From: an uncultured Collinsella sp.
Lineage (GTDB): Bacteria > Actinomycetota > Coriobacteriia > Coriobacteriales > Coriobacteriaceae
Length of the DNA stretch: 64,000 nt
Reading direction: 5' to 3'
Assembly (NCBI GenBank): GCA_937923795.1
Contig: CALDWI010000002.1
Coordinates: 11,406 to 75,405 of the forward strand
A program made the translations under genes and the position numbers. Every line of letters starts with the position of its first letter. The first letter of the stretch is position 1. This document shows positions 28,332 to 50,357 of the stretch, in pieces. A model generated the notes under the pieces. That model ran no database searches and was not told the DNA's origin. It saw only the letters and a program-made list of their open reading frames with translations.

Positions 28332-29039
28332 TTAGCCCTCCTTGCGAACTTTTTGCAGGTAGCGGTAGACGCTGGGCTCCGAGATGCCCAACGCGGTGGC
28401 GGCGCAGGCCACGGCGCCCTTGAGCATGAACACCCCGTTACCGTTGAGGTGGCGAATGACGTCCACGCGGTCGCTCTGACCAAGCGACGCTACATCCAGC
28501 CCGCGCGCGCTCAGCAGCTCGGCAATACTGCGGTCGATGAGCTCCTGTGTGGACTCCGAAAGGCTTTCGACCTCGATAGGGGCGGGCTCCGTGCGCGTCG
28601 GCGCCGCGTCGAAGCACGCCATGAGCTGCTGCGCCATGGCGTTGATGGAGCGCACGGTCGAGAGGTCGGTGTTGACGCAGAGCATACCGACGATCTCGTC
28701 ATTCTCGCGGATAAAGTACGTCGCGGACTCCAGCGTCTTGCCGCCGGCACCGCGCCCCTCGTAGCCCGTAATAAACGGCAGGTCGCGATACTTGGGATCG
28801 TGCATGATCTTGAGTGCCAGATCGGTGGCGGGACCGCCGACCTTGCGGCCGCTCACGATGCCGTTGCGAATATCGACGATGGCGTGGTCGGGATCCGAGA
28901 AATCGTGCAGCACGATTTCGCTGTTTTTGCCGAGTATCTGCTCCAGAAAATCGACCATCGGCAAAAAGCGACGTACGGTCTCGTTCACGGGCAACTCCTT
29001 TGGGTGAAATCGGAAATGTTCATAACAATTTTTTCTCAT
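28332..29039 (-). CDS. YheO-like PAS domain plus C-terminal HTH transcriptional regulator (copy 1)
   Basis: FLEQILGKNSEIVLHDFSDPDHAIVDIRNG.VSGRKVG and C-terminal ALGISEPSVYRYL. Paralogous to 40404-41057. Start chosen at the ATG at 29039. Confidence 0.75.
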   Translation of the reverse strand: MRKNCYEHFRFHPKELPVNETVRRFLPMVDFLEQILGKNSEIVLHDFSDPDHAIVDIRNGIVSGRKVGGPATDLALKIMHDPKYRDLPFITGYEGRGAGGKTLESATYFIRENDEIVGMLCVNTDLSTVRSINAMAQQLMACFDAAPTRTEPAPIEVESLSESTQELIDRSIAELLSARGLDVASLGQSDRVDVIRHLNGNGVFMLKGAVACAATALGISEPSVYRYLQKVRKEG

Positions 29040-29340
29040 GGTAACACGCTGCCCATCATCTCGTATATCCGCAGGTACATTGCGTAATGCAGACGAACGG
29101 TAGGAATTTAGCGGTAAACGGTTGACCAAAAGAAAAGTTAGATGTTATTTTTACCAGACATTTTTCTGACCTGCGGAAATGCGTTATTTCAGCTGAAGAA
29201 TAGTCTGATAACAAAAAATTATTATTGAGAATGAGAATCATCTTTAATACGATATGCAATGAAGGCACAACCTCAACCCCGCACTGCGTCACAATAGAGC
29301 GTTAGATGCGAAAACAACTACTTCGAGGATTGGTGGTCAA

Positions 29341-30735
29341 ATGACCCAGGAGACGGTTACGAACGGCACTGAAGCCCTGTTCACTCGCGAAGGCATGCCT
29401 CCCGTTAAGGAAATGATCCCGTGTGCCCTTCAGCACGTACTGGCATCGTTTGCCGGCATCATTACCCCGGCGGTCATCATGGCCGGCGTCTACGGCTTTA
29501 ATAGCCAGCAGAGCACCGACATCATCCAGGTCGCGCTCATTCTTTCGGCAATCGACACGGCCCTTCAGGCCTTCGCTCCCTTCCGTCGCATCGGCGGCGG
29601 CCTGCCCATCGTCATGGGCGTTTCGTTCGCGTTCCTGCCGGCCCTGCAGGCCATGGGTGCCTCGGGCTTTAGCTTTGGTGCGCTGCTGGGCGGCGAGATC
29701 GTCGGCGGCGCCGTCGCGGTCCTCTTTGGTCTGGCCTACAGCAAGATCAAGTGGCTGTTCCCGCCCGTCGTGACCGGTACGGTCATCTTCTCCATCGGCG
29801 TTTCGCTGTATCCCACGGCCGTCAAGTATATGGCCGGCGGTATGGGTACGCCGCTGTGGGGTACCCCGCAGGCCTGGTGCGTCGCTCTTATCACCTTCGC
29901 CGTGGTCTTTGCGCTCGCCAACTTTGGCAAGGGTACGCTCAAGCTGGGATCTGTGTTCTTTGGCATGATCGTTGGCATGATCGTCTCCATCCCCTTTGGT
30001 ATGATCGACTTCTCCAGCGTCGCCACCGCTCAGGTCTTCGCCCTTCCCAAGCTCATGCCCTACGCGCTCGAGTTTGATCCCGAGGTCTGCATTACCCTCG
30101 CCGTCGTGTTCCCCATGGTTGCCATCCAGGTTATCGGTGACGTCTCCGCCGCCTGCCTGGGCTCCATCGACCGTATGCCCACCGAGCGCGAACTCTCCGG
30201 CGCTATCGTGTCCCAGGGCCTCACCTCTATGGTCGGCGGCCTGCTGGGCGGTCTTCCCACCAGCGCCCTTGGCCAGAACGTGGGCATCATCTGCTCCAAC
30301 AAGGTCGTCAACAAGTGGGTCTTTGTGATCATCGCGGCCGTCTTTGCCATTGCCGGTCTGTTCCCGCAGCTCTCTGCCGTCCTTTCCGCTATCCCGCAGC
30401 CCGTCATCGGCGGCGCGACCGTCGGCGTCTTTGGCACCATCACCATGAACGGCGTGCGCATGTTCACCCGCGAGGGCCTCACGCAGCGCACTACCACCAT
30501 CGTCGGCACCTCCGTCGTCTTTGGCCTGGGTATCTGGATGGCCAGTGGTTGCCTTGCCGGCGAGGGTATGCCCGCCTGGGTGTCCACCGTCATCGGCTCC
30601 AATGCCGTAACCCCCACCGCCATCATGGCCATTGTCCTTAACCTGATCCTTCCGCAGACGCCGGTCGTGGCTCAGCACATCGATGCTGCCAAGGACGCTG
30701 CCGTGGATCTGGTCTTGCCCGAGAGCAAGAAGTAA
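29341..30735 (+). CDS. Nucleobase:cation symporter-2 (NCS2) family purine (xanthine/uric acid type) permease
   Basis: 464 aa polytopic protein with an NCS2-like GDVSAA/QGL..M.GGLLGGLPTS..GQNVG region. Confidence 0.85.
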   Translation: MTQETVTNGTEALFTREGMPPVKEMIPCALQHVLASFAGIITPAVIMAGVYGFNSQQSTDIIQVALILSAIDTALQAFAPFRRIGGGLPIVMGVSFAFLPALQAMGASGFSFGALLGGEIVGGAVAVLFGLAYSKIKWLFPPVVTGTVIFSIGVSLYPTAVKYMAGGMGTPLWGTPQAWCVALITFAVVFALANFGKGTLKLGSVFFGMIVGMIVSIPFGMIDFSSVATAQVFALPKLMPYALEFDPEVCITLAVVFPMVAIQVIGDVSAACLGSIDRMPTERELSGAIVSQGLTSMVGGLLGGLPTSALGQNVGIICSNKVVNKWVFVIIAAVFAIAGLFPQLSAVLSAIPQPVIGGATVGVFGTITMNGVRMFTREGLTQRTTTIVGTSVVFGLGIWMASGCLAGEGMPAWVSTVIGSNAVTPTAIMAIVLNLILPQTPVVAQHIDAAKDAAVDLVLPESKK

Positions 30736-30930
30736 CCAATTCGGTGCTATTCGTCGGCGGACGCATCGCCTCGTCCGCCGACGCCATGCGGCACCAAGCC
30801 GCACTTCAAAGGGTTTGTCCCTTTGGTGAAGCGTTGACGGGAGAGGGCCCGTTTCCGGTGTAGGCCGGCGCTTCGCACTCCGCCATGTCAGAGGTGTCAA
30901 ACCCCGCCTCTGATGTTGAAGGGAGCATCC

Positions 30931-32286
30931 ATGCTTCTGGTCGCTAACGGTTCCGTCTTTACCCGCAACGCTCAGACCCCGTTTATTCCAAACGGTGCGG
31001 TCGCCATTGACGGAGATACGATCGTCGAAGTGGGCCCCGAGCGCGAGCTCAAGGCCAAGTACCCGGATGCCGAGTACGTCGATGCCCAGGGCAACCTCAT
31101 CATGCCCGGACTCATCAACTGCCACACCCACATCTACTCGGGTCTGGCCCGCGGCCTTGCCATTAAGGGCTGCAACCCCACCAACTTCTTGGAGAATCTC
31201 GAGCAGCAGTGGTGGAAGATCGACGACAACCTGACGCTCGACGGCACCAAGGCCAGCGCCTATGCTACGATTTTGGACTCCATCCGTGATGGCGTCACCA
31301 CGATCTTCGATCACCATGCGAGCTTCTGCGAGATTCCGGGAAGCCTCTTTACCATTAAGGATGCAGCTCAGGAGCTGGGCATGCGTTCGTGCCTGTGCTA
31401 CGAGGTCTCCGATCGCCGCGGCCAGGAAAAGTGCGACCAGGCCATTGCCGAGAACGCCGAATTTGCCCAGTGGGCCGCCAAGGAGCGTCGCGATAACGAC
31501 AACCACATGATCGCCGCCATGTTTGGCGGACATGCTACCTTTACGCTTTCGGACGAGACCATGGATAAGATGGCCGAGGCCAACAACGGCCTGACCGGCT
31601 TCCACATCCATGTGTGCGAGGGCATGAACGACGTGTGGGACTCCCGCCTCAACCGCGGTGGCATCAGCCCCGTCGAGCGCCTGCTGCAGCACAACCTGCT
31701 GGGTCCCGACACCATGCTGGGCCACTGCATCCACGTGACGCCTGCCGAGATGGATATCGTCAAGGAGTCCGGCACTTGGCTCGTCAACAACCCCGAATCC
31801 AATATGGGCAACGCCGTGGGCTGCGCCCCCGTGCTCGAGTTCTTCCGCCGCGGCATCCCCGTGTGCATGGGCACCGACGCCTACACCCACGATATGCTCG
31901 AGAGCCTTAAGGTCTTCCTGATTATTCAGCGCCACAACGCCGCCATGCCCAACGTGGGCTGGTGCGAGGCCATGACGATGCTGTTCGAGAACAACGCCAA
32001 GATGGCGAGCAAGTACTTCGATCGCAAGCTCGGTGTGCTCGAGGCCGGCGCTGCCGCCGACGTTATCGTTATGGACTACAAGCCCTTTACGCCGCTGAGC
32101 GAGGAGAATATCGACGGCCACATGCTCTTTGGCATGATGGGCAAAAACTGCCGCACCACCATCATCAACGGCCGCGTCCTGTACAAGGATCGCGAGTTCG
32201 TTGGCATTGATGAGGACAAGATCAACGCGTGGACCATGGCCGAGTCCAAGAAGCTCTGGAGCACGCTCAACGATCGCACCTACTAA
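30931..32286 (+). CDS. ssnA: SsnA-type aminohydrolase (amidohydrolase superfamily)
   Basis: Colinear with recalled E. coli SsnA: MPGLINCHTHIYSGLARG, IFDHHAS, HIHVCEG, LGHCIH, LVNNPESNMGN, GTDA. GAAGGGA RBS before the ATG at 30931. Confidence 0.85.
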   Translation: MLLVANGSVFTRNAQTPFIPNGAVAIDGDTIVEVGPERELKAKYPDAEYVDAQGNLIMPGLINCHTHIYSGLARGLAIKGCNPTNFLENLEQQWWKIDDNLTLDGTKASAYATILDSIRDGVTTIFDHHASFCEIPGSLFTIKDAAQELGMRSCLCYEVSDRRGQEKCDQAIAENAEFAQWAAKERRDNDNHMIAAMFGGHATFTLSDETMDKMAEANNGLTGFHIHVCEGMNDVWDSRLNRGGISPVERLLQHNLLGPDTMLGHCIHVTPAEMDIVKESGTWLVNNPESNMGNAVGCAPVLEFFRRGIPVCMGTDAYTHDMLESLKVFLIIQRHNAAMPNVGWCEAMTMLFENNAKMASKYFDRKLGVLEAGAAADVIVMDYKPFTPLSEENIDGHMLFGMMGKNCRTTIINGRVLYKDREFVGIDEDKINAWTMAESKKLWSTLNDRTY

Positions 32287-32300
32287 TTCACAAGTAGATT

Positions 32301-32336
32301 CGCGCGCGTCGGATGTTTCGCCACATCCGACGCGCG
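32301..32336 (+). other. 15-bp GC-rich hairpin between ssnA and ygfK with no U-tract
   Basis: gcgcgcgtcggatgt-ttcgcc-acatccgacgcgcgc. Confidence 0.6.
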
Positions 32337-32435
32337 CATAGGCGGCCTCCGCGGGGTCGCCGGCGCTGTGCTAGCGCTACACCGTATTTGCGCCCGCCGC
32401 GCGGTCTCGCCGGGCGTTACAGAGAGGAACTCATT

Positions 32436-35435
32436 ATGAGCGACATCATGAGGCCGATCCCGTTTTCGCAGCTGATGAACTGGATCATCGAGGAGCACAA
32501 GACTCAGGGCGCCGTCTTTGGCGTGCGCAAGATGGTCACGACCAACCAGGAGGGCGCGCTTCCCATTTTTGACGAGCGCATCGAGACTCCGTTTGGCCCG
32601 GCCGCCGGTCCCAATACGCAGTTGGCCCAGAACATCGTGGCATCCTACGTGGCCGGTTCCCGCTTCTTTGAGCTCAAGACCGTTCAGGTTATGGACGGCG
32701 AGGAGCTCTCCAAGTGTGTCAACAAGCCCTGCATTGTGGCGCAGGACGAGTGCTACAACTGCGAGTGGTCGACCGAGCTCGAGGTTCCGCAGGCTTTTGC
32801 CGAGTACGTGAAGGCATGGTTTGCCTGCCACCTGATCGCTCGCGAGTACGGCCTGGGCAGCCCGGACGGCTTTGTCTTCAACATGTCCGTGGGTTATGAC
32901 CTGGAGGGCATCAAGAGCCCCAAGGTCGACGCCTACATCGAGGGCATGAAGGACGCCAGCGGCTCCGACGTCTGGAACGAGTGCCGCGCATGGGCGCTCG
33001 CCAACCTGGACAAGTTTGAGCATGTCGACGCCGCGTTTGTCGAGTCCATCCCGGCACGCGTCTCCAACTCCATCACCGAGTCTACCCTGCACGGCTGCCC
33101 GCCCGCCGAGATCGAGCGCATCGCGACCTACCTCATCACCGAGAAGGGCCTCAACACCTACATCAAGTGCAACCCCACGCTGCTGGGCTATGAGTTTGCA
33201 CGTCAGCGCCTCAACGAGCTGGGCTTTGACTACATCGTCTTCGACGATACGCACTTCCGCGAGGACCTGCAGTGGGCCGACGCCGTGCCCATGTTCGAGC
33301 GCCTGATTGCCCTGTGCGCCGAGCGCGGCCTGGAGTTTGGCGTCAAGCTTACCAACACCTTCCCCGTCGACGTGACGAGGAACGAGCTGCCTTCCACCGA
33401 GATGTACATGTCCGGCCGTTCGCTGTTCTCGCTGACCATCGAGGCTGCCCGTCGCATTACCGAGCAGTTCGATGGCAAGCTGCGCATCAGCTACTCCGGC
33501 GGTGCTACGGTCTACAACATCCGCGCCCTGTACGATGCCGGCATTTGGCCCGTCACCCTGGCGACCGACGTGCTCAAGCCCGGTGGCTACGAGCGCTTTA
33601 GCCAGATGGCAGGCGAGTTTACCGACCTGGATGGTAAGCCGTTCGCGGGCGTCTCTCTCGAGGCCGTGACTGCGATCCAGACCGACTCGCTCACCAATCC
33701 GCTCTACAAGAAGCCGCTGCGTCCGCTGCCCGACCGCAAGGTCGCCGGCAAGAGTCCGCTTTCCGACTGCTTTACCACGCCGTGCCGTACGAGCTGCCCC
33801 ATCCAGCAGGATATTCCCGCCTACCTGGCGGCTGTTGACGAGGGCCGCTACGAGGACGCGCTCAACATCATCATCGAGCGCAACGCCCTGCCGTTCATTA
33901 CCGGCACCATCTGCCCGCATCCCTGCGGCCGTGCCTGCGAGCGTGCATTCTACGAGCCCGAGGGCGCCCAGATCCGCGCCAGCAAGCTCAAGGCCGCCCG
34001 CGAGGCCATGACCGCCGTGCTGCCCAAGCTGCGCGCCCAGGCCATCGCCAACGACGGCGAGCGCAGCGTTGCCGTTATCGGCGGCGGCCCGGCCGGTCTG
34101 GCGACGGCGTTCTTCCTGACGCGTGCCGGCGTGCCCGTAACCATCTTCGAGGCCCGCGATTCGCTCGGCGGCGTGGTCCGTCACGTGATCCCCGAGTTCC
34201 GTATCGCGAGCGACGATATCTCCCACGATGCTGAGCTCTGCCTGGCCTTTGGCGCCAAGGTTCAGCTTAACGCTCACGTGGAGTCCATTGACGAACTCAA
34301 GGCCCAGGGCTTTACCGACGTGGTCGTGGCCACCGGCGCCTGGATGCCCGGCTCTGCGGGCTTGGGCGAGGGCGCCGAGCTCGACGTGCTGGAGTTCCTC
34401 GAGGCCGCCAAGAAGGGCGAGAAGCTCGAGCTGGGCGAGGACGTCGTGGTCATCGGCGCCGGCAACACCGCCATGGATGCTGCCCGCGTGGCCAGGCGCC
34501 TGGCTGGTGTGAAGAACGTGCGCCTGGTGTATCGCCGCACCAAGAAGCAGATGCCCGCCGACGAGGAAGAGCTTGATCTTGCTCTTGCCGACGGCGTTGA
34601 GTTCTGCGAGCTGCTGGCGCCCAAGGCACTCAACGGCGCCGTGCTGACTTGCGACGTTATGGAGCTTGGCGAGCCGGATGCAAGCGGCCGTCGCAGCCCT
34701 GTCGCCACGGGTGAGACCGTCGAGCTTCCCGCCACCACGGTGATCTGCGCCGTGGGCGAGGGCATCGATGCCAGCCTGTACGATGCCGCGGGCGTCGAGC
34801 ACGACCGTCGCGGCCGCCTTGCCGCCACCTCCACCGGCGTCGAGGGCGTCTGGGCCGCGGGCGACTGCCGTCGCGGCCCTGCCACCGTGGTCGAGGCTAT
34901 TGCCGACGCCGCCGAGGTCGCCCGTGCCATCGCCGGTGTGGACTTTAACAAGTACGCCGATTGCAACGAGCAGGCTGGCCACGAGGACACCTGCTACGAG
35001 CGCAAGGGGTCGCTGTGCCGCGACAAGCGCAACTGCACCAAGACCCGCTGCCTGGGCTGCGGTTCGGTGTGCGAGGTCTGCTGCGACGTGTGCCCCAACC
35101 GCGCCAACGTTGCCATCAAGGTGCCGGGCCTGGCCAAGCATCAGGTCCTCCATGTCGACGGCATGTGCAATGAGTGCGGCAACTGCGCCGTGTTCTGCCC
35201 CTACCAGGAGGGTCGTCCCTACAAGGACAAGCTCACCCTGTTCTGGAGCGAGCAGGACATGGAGAACTCCGAGAACGAGGGCTTCCTGGCCGTGGACGAG
35301 GATCACTTTAAGGTCCGCGTCGCCGGCACGGTCCGCACCGTCTCGGTCGATGCCGTCAACACCGGCCTTCCCGAGGCCGTCCGCCTGACCATCAGGGCCG
35401 TGCGCGACAACTATTCGTACCTTCTTAAGAAATAG
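32436..35435 (+). CDS. ygfK: YgfK-type Fe-S/FAD oxidoreductase (annotated in E. coli as putative selenate reductase subunit; DPD/GltD-like)
   Basis: MSDIMRPIPFSQLMNWI matches the recalled E. coli YgfK N-terminus MGDIMRPIPFEELL. Also VAVIGGGPAGLA dinucleotide fold, GAGNTAMD, and C-terminal CxxC clusters. Start moved to the ATG at 32436. Confidence 0.88.
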   Translation: MSDIMRPIPFSQLMNWIIEEHKTQGAVFGVRKMVTTNQEGALPIFDERIETPFGPAAGPNTQLAQNIVASYVAGSRFFELKTVQVMDGEELSKCVNKPCIVAQDECYNCEWSTELEVPQAFAEYVKAWFACHLIAREYGLGSPDGFVFNMSVGYDLEGIKSPKVDAYIEGMKDASGSDVWNECRAWALANLDKFEHVDAAFVESIPARVSNSITESTLHGCPPAEIERIATYLITEKGLNTYIKCNPTLLGYEFARQRLNELGFDYIVFDDTHFREDLQWADAVPMFERLIALCAERGLEFGVKLTNTFPVDVTRNELPSTEMYMSGRSLFSLTIEAARRITEQFDGKLRISYSGGATVYNIRALYDAGIWPVTLATDVLKPGGYERFSQMAGEFTDLDGKPFAGVSLEAVTAIQTDSLTNPLYKKPLRPLPDRKVAGKSPLSDCFTTPCRTSCPIQQDIPAYLAAVDEGRYEDALNIIIERNALPFITGTICPHPCGRACERAFYEPEGAQIRASKLKAAREAMTAVLPKLRAQAIANDGERSVAVIGGGPAGLATAFFLTRAGVPVTIFEARDSLGGVVRHVIPEFRIASDDISHDAELCLAFGAKVQLNAHVESIDELKAQGFTDVVVATGAWMPGSAGLGEGAELDVLEFLEAAKKGEKLELGEDVVVIGAGNTAMDAARVARRLAGVKNVRLVYRRTKKQMPADEEELDLALADGVEFCELLAPKALNGAVLTCDVMELGEPDASGRRSPVATGETVELPATTVICAVGEGIDASLYDAAGVEHDRRGRLAATSTGVEGVWAAGDCRRGPATVVEAIADAAEVARAIAGVDFNKYADCNEQAGHEDTCYERKGSLCRDKRNCTKTRCLGCGSVCEVCCDVCPNRANVAIKVPGLAKHQVLHVDGMCNECGNCAVFCPYQEGRPYKDKLTLFWSEQDMENSENEGFLAVDEDHFKVRVAGTVRTVSVDAVNTGLPEAVRLTIRAVRDNYSYLLKK

Positions 35436-35446
35436 GCGAGTCTCTT

Positions 35447-35926
35447 ATGACCAAATCCATTCAACATAACGTGGCCTACGTTGCCTGCGGAAGCGGTTGC
35501 GCCTCCGCAGGCGGCGACGCCCGCTGCAGCGAAGGCTGCATTGGCTGTGGCGCCTGCGTTACGGCCTGCCCCCACGGTGCCATCGCACTGGTCGACGGCG
35601 TCGCCCGCGTGGACCGCTCCAAGTGCACGGGCTGTGGCCTGTGCGGCATGGCGTGCCCGCAGCGCGTGATTGCCTTCGTTCCCGGCTACCAGAACATCCT
35701 GGTGCGCTGCAACAACACCGATAAGGGCGCCATTGCCCGCAAGATCTGCGACACGAGCTGCATCGGTTGCGGCATGTGCGCCAAAAAGTGCCCCGCCGGC
35801 GCTATCCGCATCGAGGACAACTGCGCCCATATCGACGGCGCGGACTGCCTGTCGTGCGGCATGTGCGCCGTCGTCTGCCCGCATGGCGCTATCCACGACC
35901 GCACCGGCATCGCCGCCGGCGTGTAG
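35447..35926 (+). CDS. Poly-ferredoxin: 4 x [4Fe-4S] binding-motif protein
   Basis: Four CxxCxxCxxxCP motifs: CIGCGACVTACP, CTGCGLCGMACP, CIGCGMCAKKCP, CLSCGMCAVVCP. Confidence 0.85.
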   Translation: MTKSIQHNVAYVACGSGCASAGGDARCSEGCIGCGACVTACPHGAIALVDGVARVDRSKCTGCGLCGMACPQRVIAFVPGYQNILVRCNNTDKGAIARKICDTSCIGCGMCAKKCPAGAIRIEDNCAHIDGADCLSCGMCAVVCPHGAIHDRTGIAAGV

Positions 35927-35938
35927 AAGGGAATCACC

Positions 35939-38716: not shown

Positions 38717-38785
38717 GGTAGAGCGTGGACGGCCATTGTTGACGGGCCGTTCGCGCTGAGCATCAACTACATACGCTGCGCCTTT

Positions 38786-38821
38786 GGCCCCGGCTCCATC
38801 GCGAGCCGGGGCCTTTTGTTT
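38786..38821 (+). terminator. Rho-independent terminator after xdhD
   Basis: ggccccggct-ccatcgcg-agccggggcc followed by ttttgttt. Confidence 0.8.
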
Positions 38822-40280: not shown

Positions 40281-40403
40281 TCTGTTCCATCCTTTCGAAA
40301 TACTAATGACATCGATTATATGGAACTTCCCAAGTGGCTCGGTCTTGGATTCGTGCTTTCCAGAACTCGCGCCCAAAAGGGGAGGGGCAATCCAGGCGAG
40401 CGC

Positions 40404-41057
40404 CTACTTGTCGCCGGCCGCCGCCTTGGCCTCATTGAGGTAGCTATAAAAACTGTACTTGGAGATGCCAAAGAACTCGCAGGCGCGCTCGCTCGACTTG
40501 GAAATGAGGAAGGCGCCGCGACGGTCGAGGTAGCCAATGGCACGAATGCGCTCGTCTTTGGTCATGAGTGCCGCGGGCTTGCCCACAAACTGCTCGCACT
40601 CGTGCAGCAGGTCCTCGAGCAGGTCGCCGATGTTCTTGGTAATGGGCTCGGGCTCGGTATAGCCCGTGCCGCCGGTGCCGGTAAAGGCGTCGAGCGAACG
40701 CTCAAAAGCCTTCATGAGCGTAATGTCAAAGTTAATGCCCAAAATGCCGACGGGCTTGCCTTCGTCGTTGCGGATAAAGATCGTCGACGATTTGAGCAGC
40801 TTGCCATCGGTGGTTTTGGTGAGGTATGGCTCGCGGTCGTGCACGTCGGTGGTGCCCTCGTGCATGGACTCAAACACGATATGGCTGGGGCCGTCACCCA
40901 GTTTGCGCCCGCTGACGTGGCCGTTTTCGATCACTACGATGGAGTGGTCCACGTCCTCGGTTTCCAGATCGTGGACGACGACTTCGCAGTTGGGGCCAAA
41001 TTGGAGCGCCAGGCCGTGTGCTAGGCGCTTGTAAAACTCAATCTGTGCGGGGGTCAT
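40404..41057 (-). CDS. YheO-like PAS domain plus HTH transcriptional regulator (copy 2)
   Basis: LALQFGPNCEVVVHDLETEDVDHSIVVIENGHVSGRKLG and C-terminal FFGISKYSFYSYL. Start chosen at the ATG at 41057. Confidence 0.75.
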   Translation of the reverse strand: MTPAQIEFYKRLAHGLALQFGPNCEVVVHDLETEDVDHSIVVIENGHVSGRKLGDGPSHIVFESMHEGTTDVHDREPYLTKTTDGKLLKSSTIFIRNDEGKPVGILGINFDITLMKAFERSLDAFTGTGGTGYTEPEPITKNIGDLLEDLLHECEQFVGKPAALMTKDERIRAIGYLDRRGAFLISKSSERACEFFGISKYSFYSYLNEAKAAAGDK

Positions 41058-41195: not shown

Positions 41196-41248
41196 ATGCC
41201 AATCAAAAAGTGTGATAGAACATTACTAACAAACTTTTTGTTTGGCAT
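41196..41248. promoter_or_regulatory. 16-bp inverted repeat (15/16) in the regulator/ygeX divergent promoter region; candidate operator
   Basis: atgccaatcaaaaagt (41196-41211) versus actttttgtttggcat (41233-41248), 21-bp spacer, AT-rich context. Confidence 0.4.
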
Positions 41249-42623: not shown

Positions 42624-44009
42624 ATGGCTAAAGAACTCGATTTCGACGCTATCAAGGCTGCTGCTGAGTCTCATCGTGCTGATATGACTCGCTTCCTGCG
42701 CGCTATGATCTCCCATCCCTCTGAGTCCTGCGAGGAGGGTGAGGTTGTTGCTTGCATCAAGGCCGAGATGGAGAACCTTGGCTATGACGAGGTCAAGGTC
42801 GACGGCCTGGGCAACGTTATGGGCTTTATGGGCGAGGGCGACAAGATCATCGCCATCGACTCCCACATCGACACCGTCGGCATCGGCAACATCGAGAACT
42901 GGGATGCCGATCCCTACGAGGGCTACGAGACCGATGAGATCATCTACGGCCGCGGCGGCTCCGACCAGGAGGGCGGCATGGCTTCTGCTACCTACGCTGC
43001 CAAGATGATGAAGGACATGGGCCTCATCCCCGAGGGCTACAAGATCATGGTCGTCGGCACCGTCCAGGAAGAGGACTGCGACGGCATGTGCTGGCAGTAC
43101 ATCTACAACAAGGACGGCATTAAGCCCGAGTTCGTCATTTCCACCGAGCCCACCGACGGCGGCATCTACCGCGGTCACCGCGGCCGCATGGAGATCCGCG
43201 TCGACGTTCACGGCACCTCCTGCCACGGCTCCGCTCCCGACCGCGGCGACAACGCCATCTACAAGATGGCCGACATCATCGCCGACGTCCGCGCCCTCAA
43301 CAACAACGGCTGCGACGAGTCGACCGACATCAAGGGTCTCGTCAAGATGCTCGACCCCAAGTACAATCCCGAGCACTTCGAGGATGCCCGCTTCCTGGGC
43401 CGCGGCACCTGCACCGTCAGCCAGATCTTCTACACCAGCCCCAGCCGTTGCGCCGTGGCCGACTCCTGCGCCATCTCCATCGACCGTCGCATGACCGCCG
43501 GTGAAACCTGGGAGTCCTGCCTGGACGAGATCCGCAACCTGCCGGCTGCCAAGAAGTACGGCGACGACGTGAAGGTCTCCATGTACATGTACGACCGTCC
43601 GTCCTGGACCGGCGAGGTCTACGAGACCGAGGCTTACTTCCCCACGTGGATCAACAAGGAGACCGCTCCGCACGTCAAGGCTCTCGTCGACGCCCACAAG
43701 GCCATGTTCGGTGACGAGCGCATCGGCTGCGAGCCCAGCATGGACAAGCGCACCGGTCGCCCGCTGTGCGACAAGTGGACCTTTTCCACGAACTGCGTTT
43801 CCATCCAGGGCCGCTACGGCATCCCCTGCGTGGGCTTTGGCCCGGGTGCCGAGTCTCAGGCTCACGCTCCCAACGAGGTCACCTACAAGGACGACCTGGT
43901 CACCGCTGCTGCCATGTACGTGGCTGCCCTGAACCTCTACGATCCGAGCAAGGCCGATGGCGACGCCACCGTGTTCCGCGCCGGTCTGACCAACAACAAG
44001 ATTGATTAG
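42624..44009 (+). CDS. ygeY: YgeY-family M20 metallohydrolase (selenium metabolism-linked hydrolase family)
   Basis: M20 motifs [24 protein letters not shown] and HGSAP. Sits next to ygeX and ygeW as in E. coli. Confidence 0.85.
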
Positions 44010-44210: not shown

Positions 44211-45413
44211 ATGGACGCTAAGTTTACCGAGCTCGTCGAGCAGCTGAACGGCCTCGATTTTAAGGGTATGTACGGCAGCGACTTCCTGCACACCTGGGAC
44301 AAGACTACCGATGAGCTCAAGGCTCTCTACATCGTCGCCGACGCCCTGCGCGAGCTGCGCGAGAACAACGTCTCGTCCAAGATCTTCGACTCGGGTCTGG
44401 CCGTCTCCCTGTTCCGCGACAACTCCACCCGTACGCGCTTCTCCTTCTCTAAGGCCGCCAACCTGCTCGGCCTTGAGCTGCAGGACCTGGACGAGAAGAA
44501 GTCCCAGATCGCTCACGGCGAGACCGTCCGCGAGACCGCTACCATGATCTCCTTCATGGCCGACGTCATCGGCATCCGCGACGACATGTACATCGGCAAG
44601 GGCGACGCCTACATGGCCGAGGTCTCCGAGTCTGTCCAGCAGGCTTACGAGGACGGCGTTCTGGATCACCGTCCCACGCTCATCTCCCTGCAGTCCGACT
44701 CCGATCACCCCACGCAGTCCTCTGCCGACATGCTCTACCTCATCAACGAGTTTGGCGGCCTCGAGAACCTCAAGGGCAAGAAGGTTGCCGTCACCTGGGC
44801 CTATTCGCCCTCTTACGGCAAGCCGCTGTCCTGCCCGCAGTCGCTGATCAGCCTGCTGCCCCGCTTTGGCATGGACGTCACCCTGGCTCACCCCGAGGGC
44901 TACGACCTCATGCCCGAGGTCGTTGAGCGCGCCAAGGGCTATGCCGCCGAGTCCGGCACCACCTTTAAGCAGGTCAACACCATGGCCGAGGCCTTCGAGG
45001 GCGCCGACATCGTAATCCCCAAGAGCTGGGCTCCGTTTGCCGCCATGGAGAAGCGTACCAACCTGTACGCCGAGGGCGACGACGCCGGCATCGCTGCGCT
45101 CGAGAAGGAGCTGCTCGCCCAGAACGCCACCCATCAGGACTGGTGCTCCACGACCGCGCTCATGGAGAAGACTGCCAACGGCCAGGACACCATCTTTATG
45201 CACCCGCTGCCCGCCGACATCTCCGGTGTCTCCTGCGAGCACGGCGAGGTCAACGCCGACGTCTTCGACATGCACCGCGTGGGCATGTACAAGGAGGCCA
45301 GCTACAAGCCGTACGCCATCGCAGCCATGATGTTCCTGCAGAAGGTTGCCGATCCCGCCGCTGCCCTCAAGGCCCTCGACGAGCGCAACGCTGCCCGTTG
45401 GTTCCAAGCCTAA
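44211..45413 (+). CDS. ygeW: YgeW-family (knotted) carbamoyltransferase
   Basis: FRDNSTRTRFSF carbamoyl-phosphate STRTR motif, HPLP motif (FMHPLPAD), ~400 aa. Start moved to the ATG at 44211. Confidence 0.87.
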   Translation: MDAKFTELVEQLNGLDFKGMYGSDFLHTWDKTTDELKALYIVADALRELRENNVSSKIFDSGLAVSLFRDNSTRTRFSFSKAANLLGLELQDLDEKKSQIAHGETVRETATMISFMADVIGIRDDMYIGKGDAYMAEVSESVQQAYEDGVLDHRPTLISLQSDSDHPTQSSADMLYLINEFGGLENLKGKKVAVTWAYSPSYGKPLSCPQSLISLLPRFGMDVTLAHPEGYDLMPEVVERAKGYAAESGTTFKQVNTMAEAFEGADIVIPKSWAPFAAMEKRTNLYAEGDDAGIAALEKELLAQNATHQDWCSTTALMEKTANGQDTIFMHPLPADISGVSCEHGEVNADVFDMHRVGMYKEASYKPYAIAAMMFLQKVADPAAALKALDERNAARWFQA

Positions 45414-45562: not shown

Positions 45563-46177
45563 ATGAAACTTGGTTGCGTCATTATGGCCTCGGGCGAGGG
45601 CAAGCGGTTTGGCTCTAACAAGATGCTTGCCGATATCTATGGCGAGCCGCTAATTGCCCGGACCATCGATTCGGTTCCCCGGGGCTTTGACGTCGTGGTT
45701 TCGACGCGTTGGCCCGAGGTCGCCCAGATTTGCGAGGACAAGCATTGCCCGTGCGTGCTGCACGATGGCGAGCTGCGCAGCGAAAGCGTCCGTGCGGGCC
45801 TTTCGTGGGGAGTCGAACGCAACTGGAAAGGTTGCCTCTTTTTGCCGGGCGACCAGCCGCTCGTGAGTTCGGATTCTTTTGAGGCTATGGTTCGTGCATT
45901 TGACGAGCGTGGCCGCAAGCATCCGGTGCGTCTTGCGTGCAACGGTGAGCCTTCGAGCCCGGTGCTCTTTCCGGCGGAACTGTTCGATGCGCTTATGTGT
46001 CTTGAGGGCAAGGACGGCGGCGGTTCGATCCTCAAGGACCGTACCGACGTGGTGCTGGTCGAGGCGCGTGCCTACGAGCTGTGGGACGTCGATACCGCCA
46101 AGGGACAGCGACGCATAGCGGAGCATATCGCCGCCTGCTCGTATTTTGATCGCGTGGCCAACTGCATCAATCAATAA
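45563..46177 (+). CDS. ygfJ: MobA-like NTP transferase (YgfJ/MocA-type molybdenum cofactor nucleotidyltransferase)
   Basis: VIMASGEGKRFG..NK nucleotide-binding N-terminus and LPGDQPLV motif. GGGGAGG RBS before the ATG at 45563. Confidence 0.75.
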   Translation: MKLGCVIMASGEGKRFGSNKMLADIYGEPLIARTIDSVPRGFDVVVSTRWPEVAQICEDKHCPCVLHDGELRSESVRAGLSWGVERNWKGCLFLPGDQPLVSSDSFEAMVRAFDERGRKHPVRLACNGEPSSPVLFPAELFDALMCLEGKDGGGSILKDRTDVVLVEARAYELWDVDTAKGQRRIAEHIAACSYFDRVANCINQ

Positions 46178-46186: not shown

Positions 46187-47554
46187 ATGATCATCATCAA
46201 AAACGGCGCGCTCGTGACGCCACAGGGGCTTCGCCGCGCCGATCTTGCCATGGATGGCGATAAGATCGTGCGGATCGCCGCGGCGATTGAGCCGGCTGAG
46301 GGCGATACCGTCGAGGATGCCGCGGGCTGCTGGGTGTTTCCCGGCTTCATCGACGGCCACACGCACATGCAGTGCTGGACCGGCATGGATTGGACGGCCG
46401 ATAGCTTTGAGACCGGCACGCGCGCGGCCGCCTGCGGCGGCACGACGACCATCGTGGACTACGCGACGGCCGATCGCGGCGTGACCATGCCCGATGCCTT
46501 GGCCGAGTGGCATCACCGCGCCGACGGAACCTGCACGGCCAACTACGCCTTTCATATGGCACTCGCCGAGTGGAACGAGCGCAACCGCGCCGATCTCTCG
46601 GCCATGCGCGAGGCGGGCGTGTCGTCGTTCAAGACCTACTTTGCCTACGATCATTTGCGCCTGGACGATGCCGAGACGCTCGAGGTGCTCGAGGAGCTCA
46701 AGTTTATTGGCGGCATACTGTGCGTGCATTGCGAGAACGGCACGCTGGTGAATGAGCTGCAGAAGCGCGTGTTTGAGCAGGGTATCCACGGGCCCGAGGG
46801 CCATGCGCTCAGCCGTCCGGATGTGTGCGAGGCCGAGGCAGTGAGCCGTCTGCTATATCTGGCGCACCTGGCCGGCGACGCACCGGTCAACGTGGTGCAC
46901 CTTTCGACCAAGCTGGGGCTCGAGGCCATCCGTGCCGCCAAGGCGCGCGGGCAGAAGAATATCTATGTCGAGACCTGCCCTCAGTATCTGATGCTCGACG
47001 ATACTTGCTACTTGGAGCAGGGCGAGGACGGCTTTGCGGGTGCCAAATATGTGATGAGCCCGCCGCTGCGCCATGCCGGCGACCGTGCGGCACTGCGCGA
47101 GGCACTTGTGGCAGGCGAGATCGATACGATTGCGACCGACCACTGCAGCTTTAACCTACACGGGCAAAAGGACCGCGGACGCGACGACTTCCGCGCGATT
47201 CCCAACGGCGGGCCCGGTGTGGAGCATCGCCCCGTCGCGATCGCTACGAGCTTTGAGGGACAGCTGGGCCCCGAGGATCTGTGCCGCTTGATGAGCGAGA
47301 ACCCGGCGCGCGTCTTTGGCATGTATCCGCGCAAGGGATGTCTTGCCGAGGGCTCCGATGCCGATGTGTGCGTGTGGGATCCCAAGGCGCGCTGGACCAT
47401 TAGCGCTGCGACGCAGCATCAGGCTGTGGACTACACGCCGCTCGAGGGCTTTGAGGCACATGGCCGCGCCAAGGCCGTCTTCGTCAACGGCGTGCTGGCC
47501 GCGTGCGACGGCGAGCCCACCGGAGCCCAACCCGGCCGCTACGTCCCCCGCTAA
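46187..47554 (+). CDS. hyuA: D-hydantoinase/dihydropyrimidinase-type cyclic amidohydrolase
   Basis: PGFIDGHTHM metal-binding HxH motif, SFKTYFAY (carboxylated Lys region), VHCENG, ATDHCSF. Confidence 0.87.
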   Translation: MIIIKNGALVTPQGLRRADLAMDGDKIVRIAAAIEPAEGDTVEDAAGCWVFPGFIDGHTHMQCWTGMDWTADSFETGTRAAACGGTTTIVDYATADRGVTMPDALAEWHHRADGTCTANYAFHMALAEWNERNRADLSAMREAGVSSFKTYFAYDHLRLDDAETLEVLEELKFIGGILCVHCENGTLVNELQKRVFEQGIHGPEGHALSRPDVCEAEAVSRLLYLAHLAGDAPVNVVHLSTKLGLEAIRAAKARGQKNIYVETCPQYLMLDDTCYLEQGEDGFAGAKYVMSPPLRHAGDRAALREALVAGEIDTIATDHCSFNLHGQKDRGRDDFRAIPNGGPGVEHRPVAIATSFEGQLGPEDLCRLMSENPARVFGMYPRKGCLAEGSDADVCVWDPKARWTISAATQHQAVDYTPLEGFEAHGRAKAVFVNGVLAACDGEPTGAQPGRYVPR

Positions 47555-47672: not shown

Positions 47673-48407
47673 CTATTTGAGGCTGGTGGCGACGATGGGG
47701 CGGCTGAGGGCAGTCTCAAAGCGGCCTGCCACGGCCGGGTCGGCAAGCGTGTCGACTTGGTTGAGCATAATGCGGGCATTGTTGAGGTTCAGCATCCGCA
47801 GTTCGGCATTGAGCACCATGGCGACGCGCTCGGGCGTGGCGATATCGGTGAGCTCGCAGCCGCAACGCTCGCAAAAGAGCTCGGGGCGGTGGACGGCTTC
47901 GTTGATGGGCTTGCCGAGCCCCGAGGCGCCGACGATCCAGACGATGTTGGCCGTGCCAGAGGGAATCACCGGCTCCCAGGCGGCGTGGGCCTTGAGCGGG
48001 AGCCGCTTGCTGCCATCTGCCTCGGCCAGGACGTAGTCAAAGCGCTGCGCCAGCTGGTCGAGCGGTTCGGCAGGGGAGGAGAGCTTGCCCGTCTCGGGGT
48101 CCAAGACGCCTGCTTGGCAGATGCTTCCGCGGCTCATGCCCGCGCATGCCTCGCAGGTGCAGCCTGGGGCGTGCAAGGCACCTGGCTTCCAGGGCGCGGC
48201 GTCCAGACGACGGCTCGACCCGTCCCATGGCACGCCGGCGACGGGAAACATGTGCGTGGTGGTACAGAGAAGCACCCTGCCGCCGGCGCGCATGAGCTCG
48301 AGACCCAGCGTCTTGAGCAACGTCGACTTGCCACCGCTGCCGATGATCGCGGTAATGCCCGGCTCAATCTTGAGCGTGGAGGCAAGGCTGCCGTTAACCG
48401 TTTCCAT
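47673..48407 (-). CDS. yqeC: YqeC-family selenium-dependent hydroxylase accessory protein (P-loop)
   Basis: ITAIIGSGGKSTLL Walker A directly after the N-terminus, ~240 aa, located beside yqeB/xdhC. Confidence 0.78.
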   Translation of the reverse strand: METVNGSLASTLKIEPGITAIIGSGGKSTLLKTLGLELMRAGGRVLLCTTTHMFPVAGVPWDGSSRRLDAAPWKPGALHAPGCTCEACAGMSRGSICQAGVLDPETGKLSSPAEPLDQLAQRFDYVLAEADGSKRLPLKAHAAWEPVIPSGTANIVWIVGASGLGKPINEAVHRPELFCERCGCELTDIATPERVAMVLNAELRMLNLNNARIMLNQVDTLADPAVAGRFETALSRPIVATSLK

Positions 48408-48509: not shown

Positions 48510-49304
48510 ATGCTCGTTTATGTTCGCGGCGCCGGCGATATCGCCACGGGCGTGGCTGCTCGTCTGGTGCGCGCCGGCGTGTCGGTTGTCATGGCCGATA
48601 TCGCGGTCCCCACGTGCATCCGTCGCACAATCAGTTTTTGCGAGGCCATTCGCCTGGGCGAGGTCCAGGTCGAGGGCATTCGTGCCCGCTTGGCGCAGAC
48701 GCCGGTCGAGGTGCTTGAGATTACCGAGGCGGGGGATGTCGCCGTGGTGGTGGACCCCCAGGCACAGATGCTCGGCGAACTTAGACCCGCGGCCGTGGTA
48801 GACGCGATTCTAGCTAAGCGCAATTTGGGCACCACGCGCGACATGGCTCCTGCCGTCATCGCGGTAGGGCCGGGCTTTACCGCTCCGGTTGATTGCGATG
48901 CCGTGGTCGAGACTATGCGCGGGCATTTTTTGGGCCGCGTCATTACCCAGGGCTCGCCCCAGCCCAACACGGGCGTGCCGGGCATGATCGGCGGATACGG
49001 CAAGGAGCGTGTTATCCACAGCCCCGCCGCCGGCGTGTTTAGGTCCGACCGCGCGATCGGCGACATCGTGAGTGCCGGCGATGTGATCGGGTATGCGGGT
49101 GATACTCCCATGGTCACGCAGATTGACGGCTGCTTGCGCGGCCTTTTGGCCGACGGCGTTCAGGTGACCGAGGGCTTTAAGTGCGCCGACGTCGACCCGC
49201 GCGGCGATGCCAGCTATATCAACTATATTTCGGACAAGGCGACATCGGTCGGCGGCGGCGTACTCGAGGCGCTCGCCATGCTCACCGGTGTATTCCAGGG
49301 ATAG
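48510..49304 (+). CDS. yqeB: YqeB-family selenium-dependent molybdenum hydroxylase system protein
   Basis: MLVYVRGAGDIATGVAARL N-terminal Rossmann-like motif, ~260 aa, adjacent to xdhC. Family assignment is from memory of the TIGRFAM description. Confidence 0.7.
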   Translation: MLVYVRGAGDIATGVAARLVRAGVSVVMADIAVPTCIRRTISFCEAIRLGEVQVEGIRARLAQTPVEVLEITEAGDVAVVVDPQAQMLGELRPAAVVDAILAKRNLGTTRDMAPAVIAVGPGFTAPVDCDAVVETMRGHFLGRVITQGSPQPNTGVPGMIGGYGKERVIHSPAAGVFRSDRAIGDIVSAGDVIGYAGDTPMVTQIDGCLRGLLADGVQVTEGFKCADVDPRGDASYINYISDKATSVGGGVLEALAMLTGVFQG

Positions 49305-49313
49305 GAAATTGCA

Positions 49314-50357
49314 ATGGAAAAGCTCGATGTGGTGAATGCTGCGCTTGGCGCTCTGAAGGCTGGTAAGACGTGCGAGCTGGTGGTAGTTGCCGGTACGGCA
49401 GGGTCATCGCCGCGCGGCGTGGGCGCCTGGATGGCCGTCTTTGCCGATGGCAGCCAAGCGGGCACCATCGGCGGCGGCAAGATTGAGCTCTTTGCGCTGG
49501 ACGAGGCGCGCGAGCTGCTGGCCGCAGGGCAATCGCGTCTGGTCCGCTACACCATGGGCGGCGAGAACTCCGATACTGGCATGATCTGCGGCGGAGCCAT
49601 CTGCCTGTGCTATCTGCACCTGGATGTATCGCAGGTGCCGTTGTTCCAGTCGGTTGCCGACGTTTTGGCCTATCGGCGCATCGGCGACTTCGTCATCGAC
49701 TTTGAACCGTTTGTCATTCAGGCCCTGGAGGGCGATGTGGTCGAGTACCATGGCGAGGCATCGCGCCGCACCATTGCGGGCTGCCCCGGGCTTTCGCTGG
49801 TGGAGGAGGGGAGTAAGGTTACCTACACCAACGCGGCCTCCGAGATTCCCGCGGCGCACGTCGAGACGCTCTGCCCCGAGGGCCTGACCTATATCTTTGG
49901 CTGCGGCCACGTGGGCGCCGCGACGGCGCGGGTGCTCACGGCGGCGGGCTTTGCCGTCGTGGCGTGCGACGACCGCCCCGGCACGTTGACGCCCGAATGG
50001 GTGCCCGGTGTCTACGATCGTCGCCTGGTCGATTACAAGAACCTGAGCGAGCCGTGTCCCATCGGTCCGCGCGACTTGGTGGTCGTCGCCACGGCGGGTC
50101 ACAAGTCCGATATCGACGTGGTGATTCAGGCCATGCGTGCCAAGCCTGCCTACCTGGGCTGTCTGGGTTCGCGCCGCAAGACGGCCTTTGTGCGCGCCCG
50201 CCTGGAGCAGGAGGGCTTTACGCAGGACCAGATCGACGAGCTGCACCTTCCGATCGGCGTTGCCATCGAGGCCGAGGACCCCGAGGAGATCGCCATCTCC
50301 ATCGCCGCCGAGATGATCCACCTGCGCCGCACCAAACTCGTCCCCCGCAAGCGCTAA
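49314..50357 (+). CDS. xdhC: XdhC/CoxI family molybdenum hydroxylase maturation factor
   Basis: N-terminal XdhC_CoxI domain (GSSPRGVGAWMAVFADGSQAGTIGGG) and C-terminal Rossmann (IFGCGHVGAA). Confidence 0.85.
   Translation: MEKLDVVNAALGALKAGKTCELVVVAGTAGSSPRGVGAWMAVFADGSQAGTIGGGKIELFALDEARELLAAGQSRLVRYTMGGENSDTGMICGGAICLCYLHLDVSQVPLFQSVADVLAYRRIGDFVIDFEPFVIQALEGDVVEYHGEASRRTIAGCPGLSLVEEGSKVTYTNAASEIPAAHVETLCPEGLTYIFGCGHVGAATARVLTAAGFAVVACDDRPGTLTPEWVPGVYDRRLVDYKNLSEPCPIGPRDLVVVATAGHKSDIDVVIQAMRAKPAYLGCLGSRRKTAFVRARLEQEGFTQDQIDELHLPIGVAIEAEDPEEIAISIAAEMIHLRRTKLVPRKR

Follow-up and report, generated by a model that had tools for sequence, protein, structure and literature searches.

A probable urate-degradation island inside the ribosomal gene cluster of a Collinsella genome, and a polyferredoxin that may serve its molybdenum hydroxylase

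Which purine enters the selenium-linked gene cluster that sits among the ribosomal protein genes of Collinsella, and where might the electrons for its first step come from? We take up both questions for a 64-kb stretch of DNA from an uncultured Collinsella sp. (GenBank assembly GCA_937923795.1, contig CALDWI010000002.1, positions 11,406 to 75,405), hereafter the window, in which the cluster occupies 28332-50357. An earlier, sequence-only reading had listed homologues of E. coli SsnA, YgfK, XdhD, YgeX, YgeY, YgeW, YgfJ, HyuA, YqeC and YqeB there, along with XdhC, an NCS2 permease and a polyferredoxin, and had proposed an organism that degrades xanthine or urate anaerobically. Profile and family matches across 27.8-50.4 kb of the window bear out that set of homologues, with two identities to be corrected below, and together with published work on C. 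aerofaciens they support a selenium-linked purine-catabolic cluster for anaerobic urate breakdown. Very probably, the region is a urate-degradation island that encodes the 2,8-dioxopurine, or reductive urate, pathway. This reading draws on nine family assignments, on identities of 32-61% to six characterised E. coli enzymes, and on the class of the molybdenum hydroxylase, a member of family TIGR03311.

The window has about 61% G+C and long open reading frames (ORFs) on both strands; the coding frame was picked by third-position GC, which stands at about 0.75-0.85 in the coding frame of the cluster genes. By the same codon-position measure, opposite-strand ORFs such as 29302-32121, 32283-35306 and 35411-38533 were discarded as high-GC artefacts. 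Gene identities, the intactness of the genes, the clade of the hydroxylase and the source organism come from our own comparisons. Scans of the window proteins against NCBIfam, with its curated cut-offs, and against Pfam placed nine proteins above an NCBIfam curated cut-off: SsnA, YgfK, the TIGR03311 hydroxylase, YgeX, YgeY, YgeW, HyuA, YqeC and YqeB. Support for the NCS2 permease, the MocA/YgfJ-like protein, the XdhC-family protein and the polyferredoxin is at family level only. To the items listed before, the interval adds two YheO-like regulators, an IS3 relic and a conserved hypothetical gene, with a RidA gene just outside. For the permease, the polyferredoxin, the regulators and RidA, we infer the roles given below.

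The genes of the urate cluster are intact. Set against orthologues from other Collinsella assemblies, all ORFs of the cluster prove to be full length, and the pathway ORFs are 85-100% identical to orthologues in other Collinsella genomes. The source of the window is the Collinsella aerofaciens group, as judged by two proteins: ribosomal protein L5 (50669-51226) is 100% identical in the 80 genome loci returned, all of them Collinsella or Coriobacteriaceae and several named C. aerofaciens, and the hydroxylase is 98% identical to a protein annotated 'selenium-dependent xanthine dehydrogenase [Collinsella aerofaciens]'. The exact L5 protein also occurs on contigs as large as a chromosome (2.0-2.4 Mb) and, in the assembly index, in some 79,000 blocks, a sign of how abundant Collinsella is in human gut data.

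The chemistry, and the induction by and consumption of urate, are taken from the literature. Gut bacteria remove about one third of human urate, by way of the reductive urate pathway (Liu et al., 10.1101/2025.04.24.650524). In C. sporogenes, XdhAC acts as a selenium-dependent 2,8-dioxopurine dehydrogenase (DOPDH), converting urate to 2,8-dioxopurine; YgfK is the NADPH:2,8-dioxopurine oxidoreductase (DOPOR), YgeW and carbamate kinase yield ATP, and SelD is required (10.1101/2025.04.24.650524). In E. coli, the first conversion is carried out by XdhD-YgfM, and YgfK with SsnA leads on to ureidomethyl-hydantoin (Li et al., PMC12507026). HyuA then gives diureidopropionate, from which YgeW (or UacY), YgeY and YgeX lead to pyruvate in E. 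coli and C. difficile (PMC12507026). C. aerofaciens ATCC 25986 consumes urate, and five genes of the set are urate-induced in it (10.1101/2022.07.24.501321); these published experiments answer the induction and consumption check that the sequence-only reading had called for. Its order of steps, with YgfK followed by SsnA and HyuA, YgeW, YgeY and YgeX, agrees with the pathway published in 2025, and its remark that most steps were unassigned has been overtaken by the enzyme assignments of that year. The pathway and the urate response of C. aerofaciens are already published, and the cluster itself adds nothing new.

The question of the substrate turns on the hydroxylase, a fused 2Fe-2S and molybdopterin protein of 925 residues encoded at 35939-38716 on the plus strand. 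Previously named XdhD, it does not keep that name: it scores 1133 bits with TIGR03311, the XdhAC or DOPDH type (cut-off 830), and 229 bits with the XdhD-type model TIGR03313 (cut-off 1102). The pucD model gives 394 bits (cut-off 784), and the XdhA models likewise fall below their cut-offs. Identity is 27% to E. coli XdhD and 29% to XdhA, and 79-81% to proteins of Olsenella and Parolsenella. The best 120 matches in the protein search are from Coriobacteriia only; the Firmicute relatives compared here were taken from a metagenome scan seeded with the polyferredoxin, to which we return. With TIGR03313 far below its cut-off and no YgfM in the window, the protein is not an XdhD orthologue; with neither an FAD subunit in the window nor an XdhA-type active site, it is not a canonical xanthine dehydrogenase of the XdhABC or PucCDE type.

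The active site points the same way. Residues V612 and S678 align with bovine F1009 and A1078, and the replacement of F1009 by V and of A1078 by T or S is the DOPDH signature (10.1101/2025.04.24.650524). The sites were matched by HMMER pairwise comparison and again in an alignment of full-length proteins; MAFFT, given a short bovine fragment, placed the F1009 site poorly, and its result was not used. Residues equivalent to E802, R880, F914 and E1261 are retained in the hydroxylase, in its Olsenella orthologue and in three proteins, 54-56% identical, from low-GC gut contigs. At the first five positions, the canonical XdhA-like proteins of Olsenella and of the low-GC contigs have Q, N or A, Y, P (a gap in XdhD) and Y or F, and so do XdhA and XdhD of E. 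coli; in all, the hydroxylase differs from XdhA-like proteins at six active-site positions. The hydroxylases of Coriobacteriia also carry a 47-residue insertion, at residues 698-744. The annotation of the C. sporogenes DOPDH (CLOSPO_02131, 856 residues) reads 'selenium-dependent molybdenum hydroxylase 1', a name that a JGI entry couples with the short name Se_dep_Molyb_1. This short name we take to be the former TIGRFAM name of TIGR03311. Fused 2Fe-2S and molybdenum cofactor domains, V and S at the signature sites and the lack of an FAD subunit in the window thus combine in a DOPDH-type enzyme of TIGR03311, predicted to reduce urate to 2,8-dioxopurine. The first step would then be a reductive 6-dehydroxylation of urate, and not the hydroxylation by XdhD that had been proposed.

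NCBIfam and NCBI name the enzyme a 'selenium-dependent xanthine dehydrogenase', and DOPDH does run in reverse too, in vitro (10.1101/2025.04.24.650524). Taken at its word, the name would make the hydroxylase a conventional selenium-dependent xanthine dehydrogenase and the cluster one that is fed by xanthine or hypoxanthine, with urate as a product. We consider this very unlikely. Not only are the active-site positions those of the DOPDH clade, unlike those of the XdhA-like proteins found beside the same pathway in Olsenella and the low-GC contigs, but the gene is co-operonic with ygfK and ssnA, whose products act on 2,8-dioxopurine, and there is no FAD subunit in the window. Moreover, urate and 2,8-dioxopurine are the only two compounds that the characterised DOPDH of C. 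sporogenes interconverts (10.1101/2025.04.24.650524). Because the window holds no canonical xanthine dehydrogenase, only entry by urate is supported: of the 'xanthine or urate' first suggested, urate has support here and xanthine has none, the window having nothing that converts xanthine or hypoxanthine to urate. Selenium dependence, an established property of the C. sporogenes DOPDH activity, has no known sequence signature (10.1101/2025.04.24.650524).

The upper block, in which this hydroxylase lies, carries the other enzymes expected early in a reductive urate pathway. It opens with an NCS2-family nucleobase permease (29341-30735, plus strand) that scores 340.9 bits with the pbuX model (cut-off 414) and 65 with NCS2_1 (cut-off 40), shows 28% identity with E. 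coli XanQ and 26% with UacT, and is presumed to import urate. SsnA (30913-32286, plus) follows, an amidohydrolase with 633.5 bits against a cut-off of 444 for NF005540 and 554 against 455 for TIGR03314; it shares 32% identity with E. coli SsnA, the enzyme that cleaves the ring once 2,8-dioxopurine has been reduced (PMC12507026). The adjacent YgfK (32436-35435, plus), the DOPOR of the pathway, reaches 1285 bits with TIGR03315 (cut-off 835) in a match that starts at residue 43 of the ORF, and is 44% identical to E. coli YgfK over its full length; this pairing of DOPOR with SsnA is what a 2,8-dioxopurine cluster should display. Beyond the polyferredoxin and hydroxylase genes, the upper operon would be closed by an intrinsic terminator-like hairpin (38786-38813, plus), 70 nucleotides 3' of the xdh stop codon, whose 11-bp stem with 10 G-C pairs is followed by TTTTGTTT, a match to the consensus. 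An ORF called at 38763-39233 (minus) was rejected as merely an IS3 fragment overlapping this hairpin.

The enzymes of the lower pathway are represented too, with YgeX, YgeY, YgeW and HyuA all above curated cut-offs in one co-directional block on the plus strand. YgeX (41335-42549), a 2,3-diaminopropionate ammonia-lyase that yields pyruvate and ammonia, scores 610 bits with TIGR03528 (cut-off 532) and is 49% identical to its E. coli namesake. YgeY (42624-44009), an M20 hydrolase that takes off the carbamoyl group still left, reaches 622 bits with NF009555 (cut-off 321; 59% identity to E. coli YgeY). The knotted carbamoyltransferase YgeW (44211-45413) has 725 bits with TIGR03316 (cut-off 500) and 61% identity to E. 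coli YgeW; the match begins at residue 68 of the ORF, and the protein is called at 400 residues in other assemblies. HyuA (46187-47554), a D-hydantoinase, scores 510 bits with TIGR02033 (cut-off 393) and is 39% identical to E. coli HyuA. Between YgeW and HyuA lies a MocA/YgfJ-like nucleotidyltransferase (45563-46177, plus), with 101 bits for TIGR03310 (cut-off 186) and PF12804 in its orthologues, which at this family-level assignment is presumed to cytidylylate the molybdenum cofactor.

Cofactor maturation genes complete the set. Both YqeC (47673-48407, minus) and YqeB (48510-49304, plus), the markers of the selenium-dependent molybdenum hydroxylase trait, pass the profile check once proposed for them, at 147.7 bits against 73 for TIGR03172 and 343.5 against 220 for TIGR03309, respectively; YqeB, which acts in maturation of the selenium-dependent molybdenum cofactor, is 54% identical to residues 270-526 of its E. 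coli counterpart. The next gene (49314-50357, plus) encodes a maturation factor of the XdhC/CoxI family with 216 bits for NF045664 (cut-off 350) and 139 for TIGR02964 (cut-off 162), and its product is 31-39% identical to residues 22-253 of E. coli YqeB, a protein of 541 residues. Since both halves of E. coli YqeB thus match separate genes of the window, the 'XdhC' of the sequence-only reading is better described as the split-off N-terminal half of YqeB, although it does belong, below cut-off, to the XdhC family.

Assembled from these parts and the published chemistry, the pathway would begin in the upper operon (29.3-38.7 kb) under regulator 1, with import of urate by the permease. The selenium-dependent molybdenum hydroxylase would reduce urate to 2,8-dioxopurine, with electrons probably arriving via the adjacent polyferredoxin; YgfK would reduce 2,8-dioxopurine with NADPH, and SsnA would then open the ring. 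In the lower operon (41.3-47.6 kb), under regulator 2, HyuA would open a hydantoin or dihydrouracil intermediate to 2,3-diureidopropionate, YgeW would phosphorolyse one ureido group to carbamoyl phosphate, and YgeY would hydrolyse the other. YgeX would convert the resulting 2,3-diaminopropionate to pyruvate and ammonia, RidA clearing the enamine. The MocA-like protein, the XdhC-family protein, YqeB and YqeC would mature the molybdenum and selenium cofactor, while carbamate kinase, which would turn carbamoyl phosphate into ATP, and SelD would be encoded outside the window.

Several family names suggest something quite different, namely a selenium-metabolism or selenate-reductase system: NCBIfam speaks of a 'putative selenate reductase subunit YgfK', a 'selenium metabolism protein SsnA' and, for YgeY, a 'selenium metabolism-linked hydrolase'. 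Such names go back to genes that turn up together with YqeB and YqeC, and are not known to rest on any assay. Selenate is neither needed by YgfK nor stimulatory, and the substrates of YgfK, SsnA and YgeY are purine-derived (PMC12507026; 10.1101/2025.04.24.650524), which leaves a selenate system with next to no chance of being correct.

What the window lacks deserves equal attention. A tblastn search of the 64 kb with E. coli YqeA, YgfM, XdhB, GuaD and SelD, and with a Collinsella carbamate kinase, returned only a weak match of GuaD to SsnA, and so confirms the earlier statement that carbamate kinase, an FAD subunit, guanine deaminase and selD are missing from the window. In the survey of Liu et al., 33 of 39 strains have carbamate kinase within the cluster (10.1101/2025.04.24.650524); the window has no such in-cluster gene. 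As the kinase of C. aerofaciens ATCC 25986 is located elsewhere on the chromosome (10.1101/2025.04.24.650524), an in-cluster location is not decisive for membership. SelD together with YqeBC is present in every cluster-bearing strain of the library of Liu et al. (10.1101/2025.04.24.650524). With kinase and SelD both absent from the window, the case for ATP coupling and for selenium supply draws on published work with a related strain.

Other Collinsella genomes show how variable these features can be. A carbamate kinase, 60% identical to YqeA, stands between ygeW and mocA in 13 of the 53 Collinsella species representatives that span this junction (loci with an in-cluster kinase are L013, L024, L028, L031, L034, L037, L055, L057, L064, L066, L068, L073, L079, L081 and L100). 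A second NCS2 permease, 51% identical to that of the cluster and not present in the window, occurs between the XdhC-family gene and rplE at 12 of 69 genome loci, and also at L005, L008 and L010. Locus L088 keeps regulator 2 and the MocA-like, yqeC, yqeB and XdhC-family genes and is without ygeX, ygeY, ygeW and hyuA; it is likely a non-degrader genotype. Urate use varies within Collinsella (10.1101/2022.07.24.501321), and this variation in genotype fits the reported differences between strains.

Might the window itself then hold a decaying or partly inactive copy, in a strain that does not degrade urate? The cluster is split in two with an IS3 relic between its blocks, it is without the in-cluster kinase that 13 of 53 related genomes have, and both the deletion variant L088, lacking ygeX to hyuA, and the variable urate use within Collinsella lend the idea some plausibility. 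We judge it highly improbable all the same: the pathway ORFs are full length, with strong coding bias and 85-100% identity to orthologues, the urate-consuming ATCC 25986 likewise has its kinase outside the cluster, and the IS3 relic is intergenic, in a hotspot, and interrupts no gene.

A functional urate pathway thus remains our reading of the island, against which some points must be weighed. The V/S signature is alignment-based, and was offered by Liu et al. as a possible specificity determinant (10.1101/2025.04.24.650524). The two 2025 papers disagree on which ureido group is removed by YgeW (10.1101/2025.04.24.650524; PMC12507026). The permease (with pbuX), the MocA-like protein and the XdhC-family protein score below NCBIfam cut-offs, and carbamate kinase and SelD are absent from the 64-kb window. 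The urate data come from ATCC 25986, with which the strain of the window, known from its genes alone, is not equated. Finally, C. aerofaciens was among the species tested in the preprint of Kasahara et al., in which Actinomycetota are not among the phyla growing on urate as a carbon and energy source.

If urate is the entry substrate, what delivers electrons to the hydroxylase? The physiological electron donor of DOPDH is reported as unknown (Liu et al., 10.1101/2025.04.24.650524), and ferredoxin in general has been suggested for the clostridial enzymes (Li et al., PMC12507026). Between ygfK and the hydroxylase gene, the window encodes a polyferredoxin of 159 residues (35447-35926, plus), with four CxxCxxCxxxCP motifs for [4Fe-4S] clusters and RnfB-like Fe-S matches. 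An Olsenella orthologue, 55% identical, likewise stands between ygfK and xdh. When metagenomes were scanned with the Collinsella and Olsenella polyferredoxins as seeds, Collinsella copies came back together with 33 contigs of 41-57% G+C whose polyferredoxins are 51-61% identical. In all 30 of the low-GC human-gut contigs with enough flank, the polyferredoxin gene lies immediately 3' of a DOPDH-type gene, and at the three loci examined in detail its ATG stands 4 nucleotides past the hydroxylase stop codon. All 21 cysteines are invariant among the polyferredoxin orthologues, 16 of them in the motifs and five further ones. The order of the two genes is ferredoxin-xdh in Coriobacteriia and xdh-ferredoxin in the low-GC contigs; kept despite this reversal, and in two phyla, the pairing has survived gene rearrangement across phyla.

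On this gene context we tentatively propose, at a little below an even chance, that the polyferredoxin is the dedicated electron-transfer partner of DOPDH. A text search of the literature found no paper that links a polyferredoxin gene to DOPDH, and neither Liu et al. nor Li et al. names one; the pairing, and the position of the island between rplX and rplE, may be new. As a separate observation, a canonical XdhA-like molybdenum subunit is also encoded near the DOPDH-polyferredoxin pair in low-GC gut contigs and in Olsenella uli. In O. uli this XdhA-like gene, which comes with an FAD subunit, lies 7.5 kb downstream; the XdhA-like protein of L155 (6787-10645) has FAD and 2Fe-2S subunits, and that of L096 (20232-22775) has an FAD subunit.

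How the two blocks are controlled is suggested by the genes that face them. Regulator 1 (28332-28988, minus), a YheO-like protein with PAS_6 and HTH_22 domains (118.6 bits for PF08348, 64.7 for PF13309), is divergent from the upper operon, is called at 218 residues in other assemblies and has an orthologue at the same position in O. uli. Regulator 2 (40404-41057, minus), of the same architecture (127 bits for PF08348, 56 for PF13309) and 30% identical to regulator 1, is divergent from the lower operon. That each regulator faces one block suggests separate control of the upper and lower pathway. An imperfect palindrome of 19 bp, CTAACAAACTTTTTGTTTG, at 41226-41244, 91 nucleotides upstream of ygeX, is a candidate operator; it occurs only once in the window, where chance would predict 0 matches. 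A perfect palindrome, CTAACAAACAGTTTGTTAG, in the regulator/permease spacer of Olsenella resembles it, and the spacers share several 10-mers. No operator motif common to both regulator spacers of the window was found, with nothing comparable at regulator 1, and the literature searched holds no characterised ligand for the YheO family. A scan of the whole window with Rfam at the gathering threshold gave no match of any kind, and thus no purine, xanthine or molybdenum cofactor riboswitch and no ribosomal-protein leader.

Next to regulator 1, here and in other Collinsella assemblies, lies the gene for a RidA-family enamine/imine deaminase (27830-28207, plus; TIGR00004 160.5 bits against 106, and Pfam Ribonuc_L-PSP). 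It is missing, along with the whole island, in a Collinsella species with only GFO, DeoR and U32 genes between rplX and rplE, and its product probably disposes of the 2-aminoacrylate that YgeX sets free. The spacer between the two blocks (38717-40403) is a strain-variable hotspot. In the window it carries the relic of an IS3-family transposase C-terminus (39030-39179, minus), 50 residues that match positions 286-335 of the 369 in profile NF033516 (E 8.5e-12); at the corresponding place other strains (L100-L105) have EcoRII/Dcm, type I restriction-modification, GmrSD, an SNF2/DUF4391 helicase or an integrase, and one strain has an intact IS3 beside regulator 1. The spacer also holds a conserved hypothetical gene from the ORF listing (39291-40280, minus), whose Pro/Ala-rich product of 329 residues has one C-terminal hydrophobic segment and no Pfam match. 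Orthologues of 328-329 residues adjoin regulator 2 in all six other assemblies, and variant L088 has a version with 51% identity; a role as an enzyme of the pathway is improbable. Two overlapping ORFs, 39252-40103 (plus) and 39281-40156 (minus), gave no family matches and were rejected.

The island is found within the ribosomal spc gene cluster, with rplX on one side and rplE on the other: rplN and rplX are at 20962-21649, and rplE, rpsH, rplF and the genes that follow at 50669-60393. The 29 kb between them hold a GFO/IDH/MocA oxidoreductase, a DeoR regulator, RluA, a U32 peptidase, RidA and the urate island. A chimeric assembly was ruled out, as ten independent assemblies, several with contigs above 2 Mb, and all 69 informative Collinsella genomes (those with at least 1.4 kb upstream of rplE) share the right-hand junction; the left-hand junction is the same in four assemblies. 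Upstream of rplE stands the XdhC-family gene in 57 of the 69 and the further NCS2 permease in 12, and in none of the 69 does rplX lie within 10 kb of rplE. In a Collinsella species with 93% L5 identity the gap measures 5 kb and contains only the GFO, DeoR and U32 genes; in a C. tanakaei-like genome it is filled by unrelated ones. These gaps without an island in relatives argue that the break predates the island, which, from RidA to the XdhC-family gene, was added within it. The U32-family protein that flanks the island, also kept in the species without it, has 831 residues (25034-27529, minus) with two U32 stretches and DUF3656; its best matches, TrhP and UbiU, are both below cut-off.

A hairpin with a T-run follows rplX. 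Ahead of rplE, 50526-50668 contains a leader of about 135 nucleotides and a -10 box, TATAGT, both conserved whatever the upstream gene, which suggests that rplE starts its own transcription unit. The predicted stems of this leader, CUCCUG/CAGGAG and GCACG/CGUGC, have no Rfam match; the leader may be a ribosomal-protein autoregulatory one. A second insertion was seen further upstream, where rpsJ (S10, 1612-1920) is separated by about 14 kb from rplC (L3, 15861). This side region (1612-16481) encodes acyl carrier protein, FabK-like, FabD, FabG, FabF, the biotin carboxyl carrier protein, FabZ, biotin carboxylase, carboxyltransferase, a phosphotransferase system EIIC component, a cation-efflux transporter and a histidine phosphatase; in the L093 assembly, only the last two stand between rpsJ and rplC.

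Compared with known systems, the island is closest to the cluster of C. aerofaciens ATCC 25986 (10.1101/2022.07.24.501321; 10.1101/2025.04.24.650524), which belongs to the same species group and likewise has its kinase outside the cluster. The polyferredoxin, the YheO-like regulators, RidA and the ribosomal-cluster position, not discussed in the papers on that strain, are described here. C. sporogenes CLOSPO_02119-02131, compared with the window by description, offers the same enzyme set, with a fused 2Fe-2S/molybdenum hydroxylase, no FAD subunit, YqeB and YqeC, and a kinase elsewhere. It differs in phylum and gene order, and the 47-residue insertion is found only on the Coriobacteriia side; no ferredoxin gene is annotated after CLOSPO_02131, where there is an unannotated gap of 677 nucleotides.

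The E. coli K-12 ygeV-ygfT region (Li et al., PMC12507026) has the same chemistry from 2,8-dioxopurine onward and shares YgfK, YgeW, YgeY, YgeX, HyuA, SsnA, YqeB and YqeC. For the first step, however, E. coli employs XdhD with the FAD subunit YgfM and NADH, whereas the window hydroxylase, 27% identical to XdhD, has other active-site residues. E. coli YqeB is a fusion of XdhC-like and YqeB parts, which are two genes in the opposite order in the window, and E. coli has in addition the sigma-54 regulator YgeV, an in-cluster yqeA, guaD and xdhABC. C. difficile (PMC12507026) resembles the window in a hydroxylase without an FAD subunit, proposed to be ferredoxin-dependent, and in SsnA, HyuA, YgeY and YgeX, but has a PydA-like UacX in place of YgfK and the hydrolase UacY in place of YgeW and kinase; the window keeps YgfK and YgeW.

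These comparisons have implications at several levels. The rplX/rplE gap contains different genes in different Collinsella species. An in-cluster kinase, a second permease and loss of the lower operon could explain differences between strains in urate use and ATP yield. The YheO-like regulators and the candidate operator offer an entry to the regulation of the pathway outside E. coli. Most concretely, the polyferredoxin gives the search for the missing DOPDH electron donor a testable candidate; if it does serve the enzyme, the module would tie the hydroxylase to the pool of ferredoxin or to YgfK through its Fe-S clusters.

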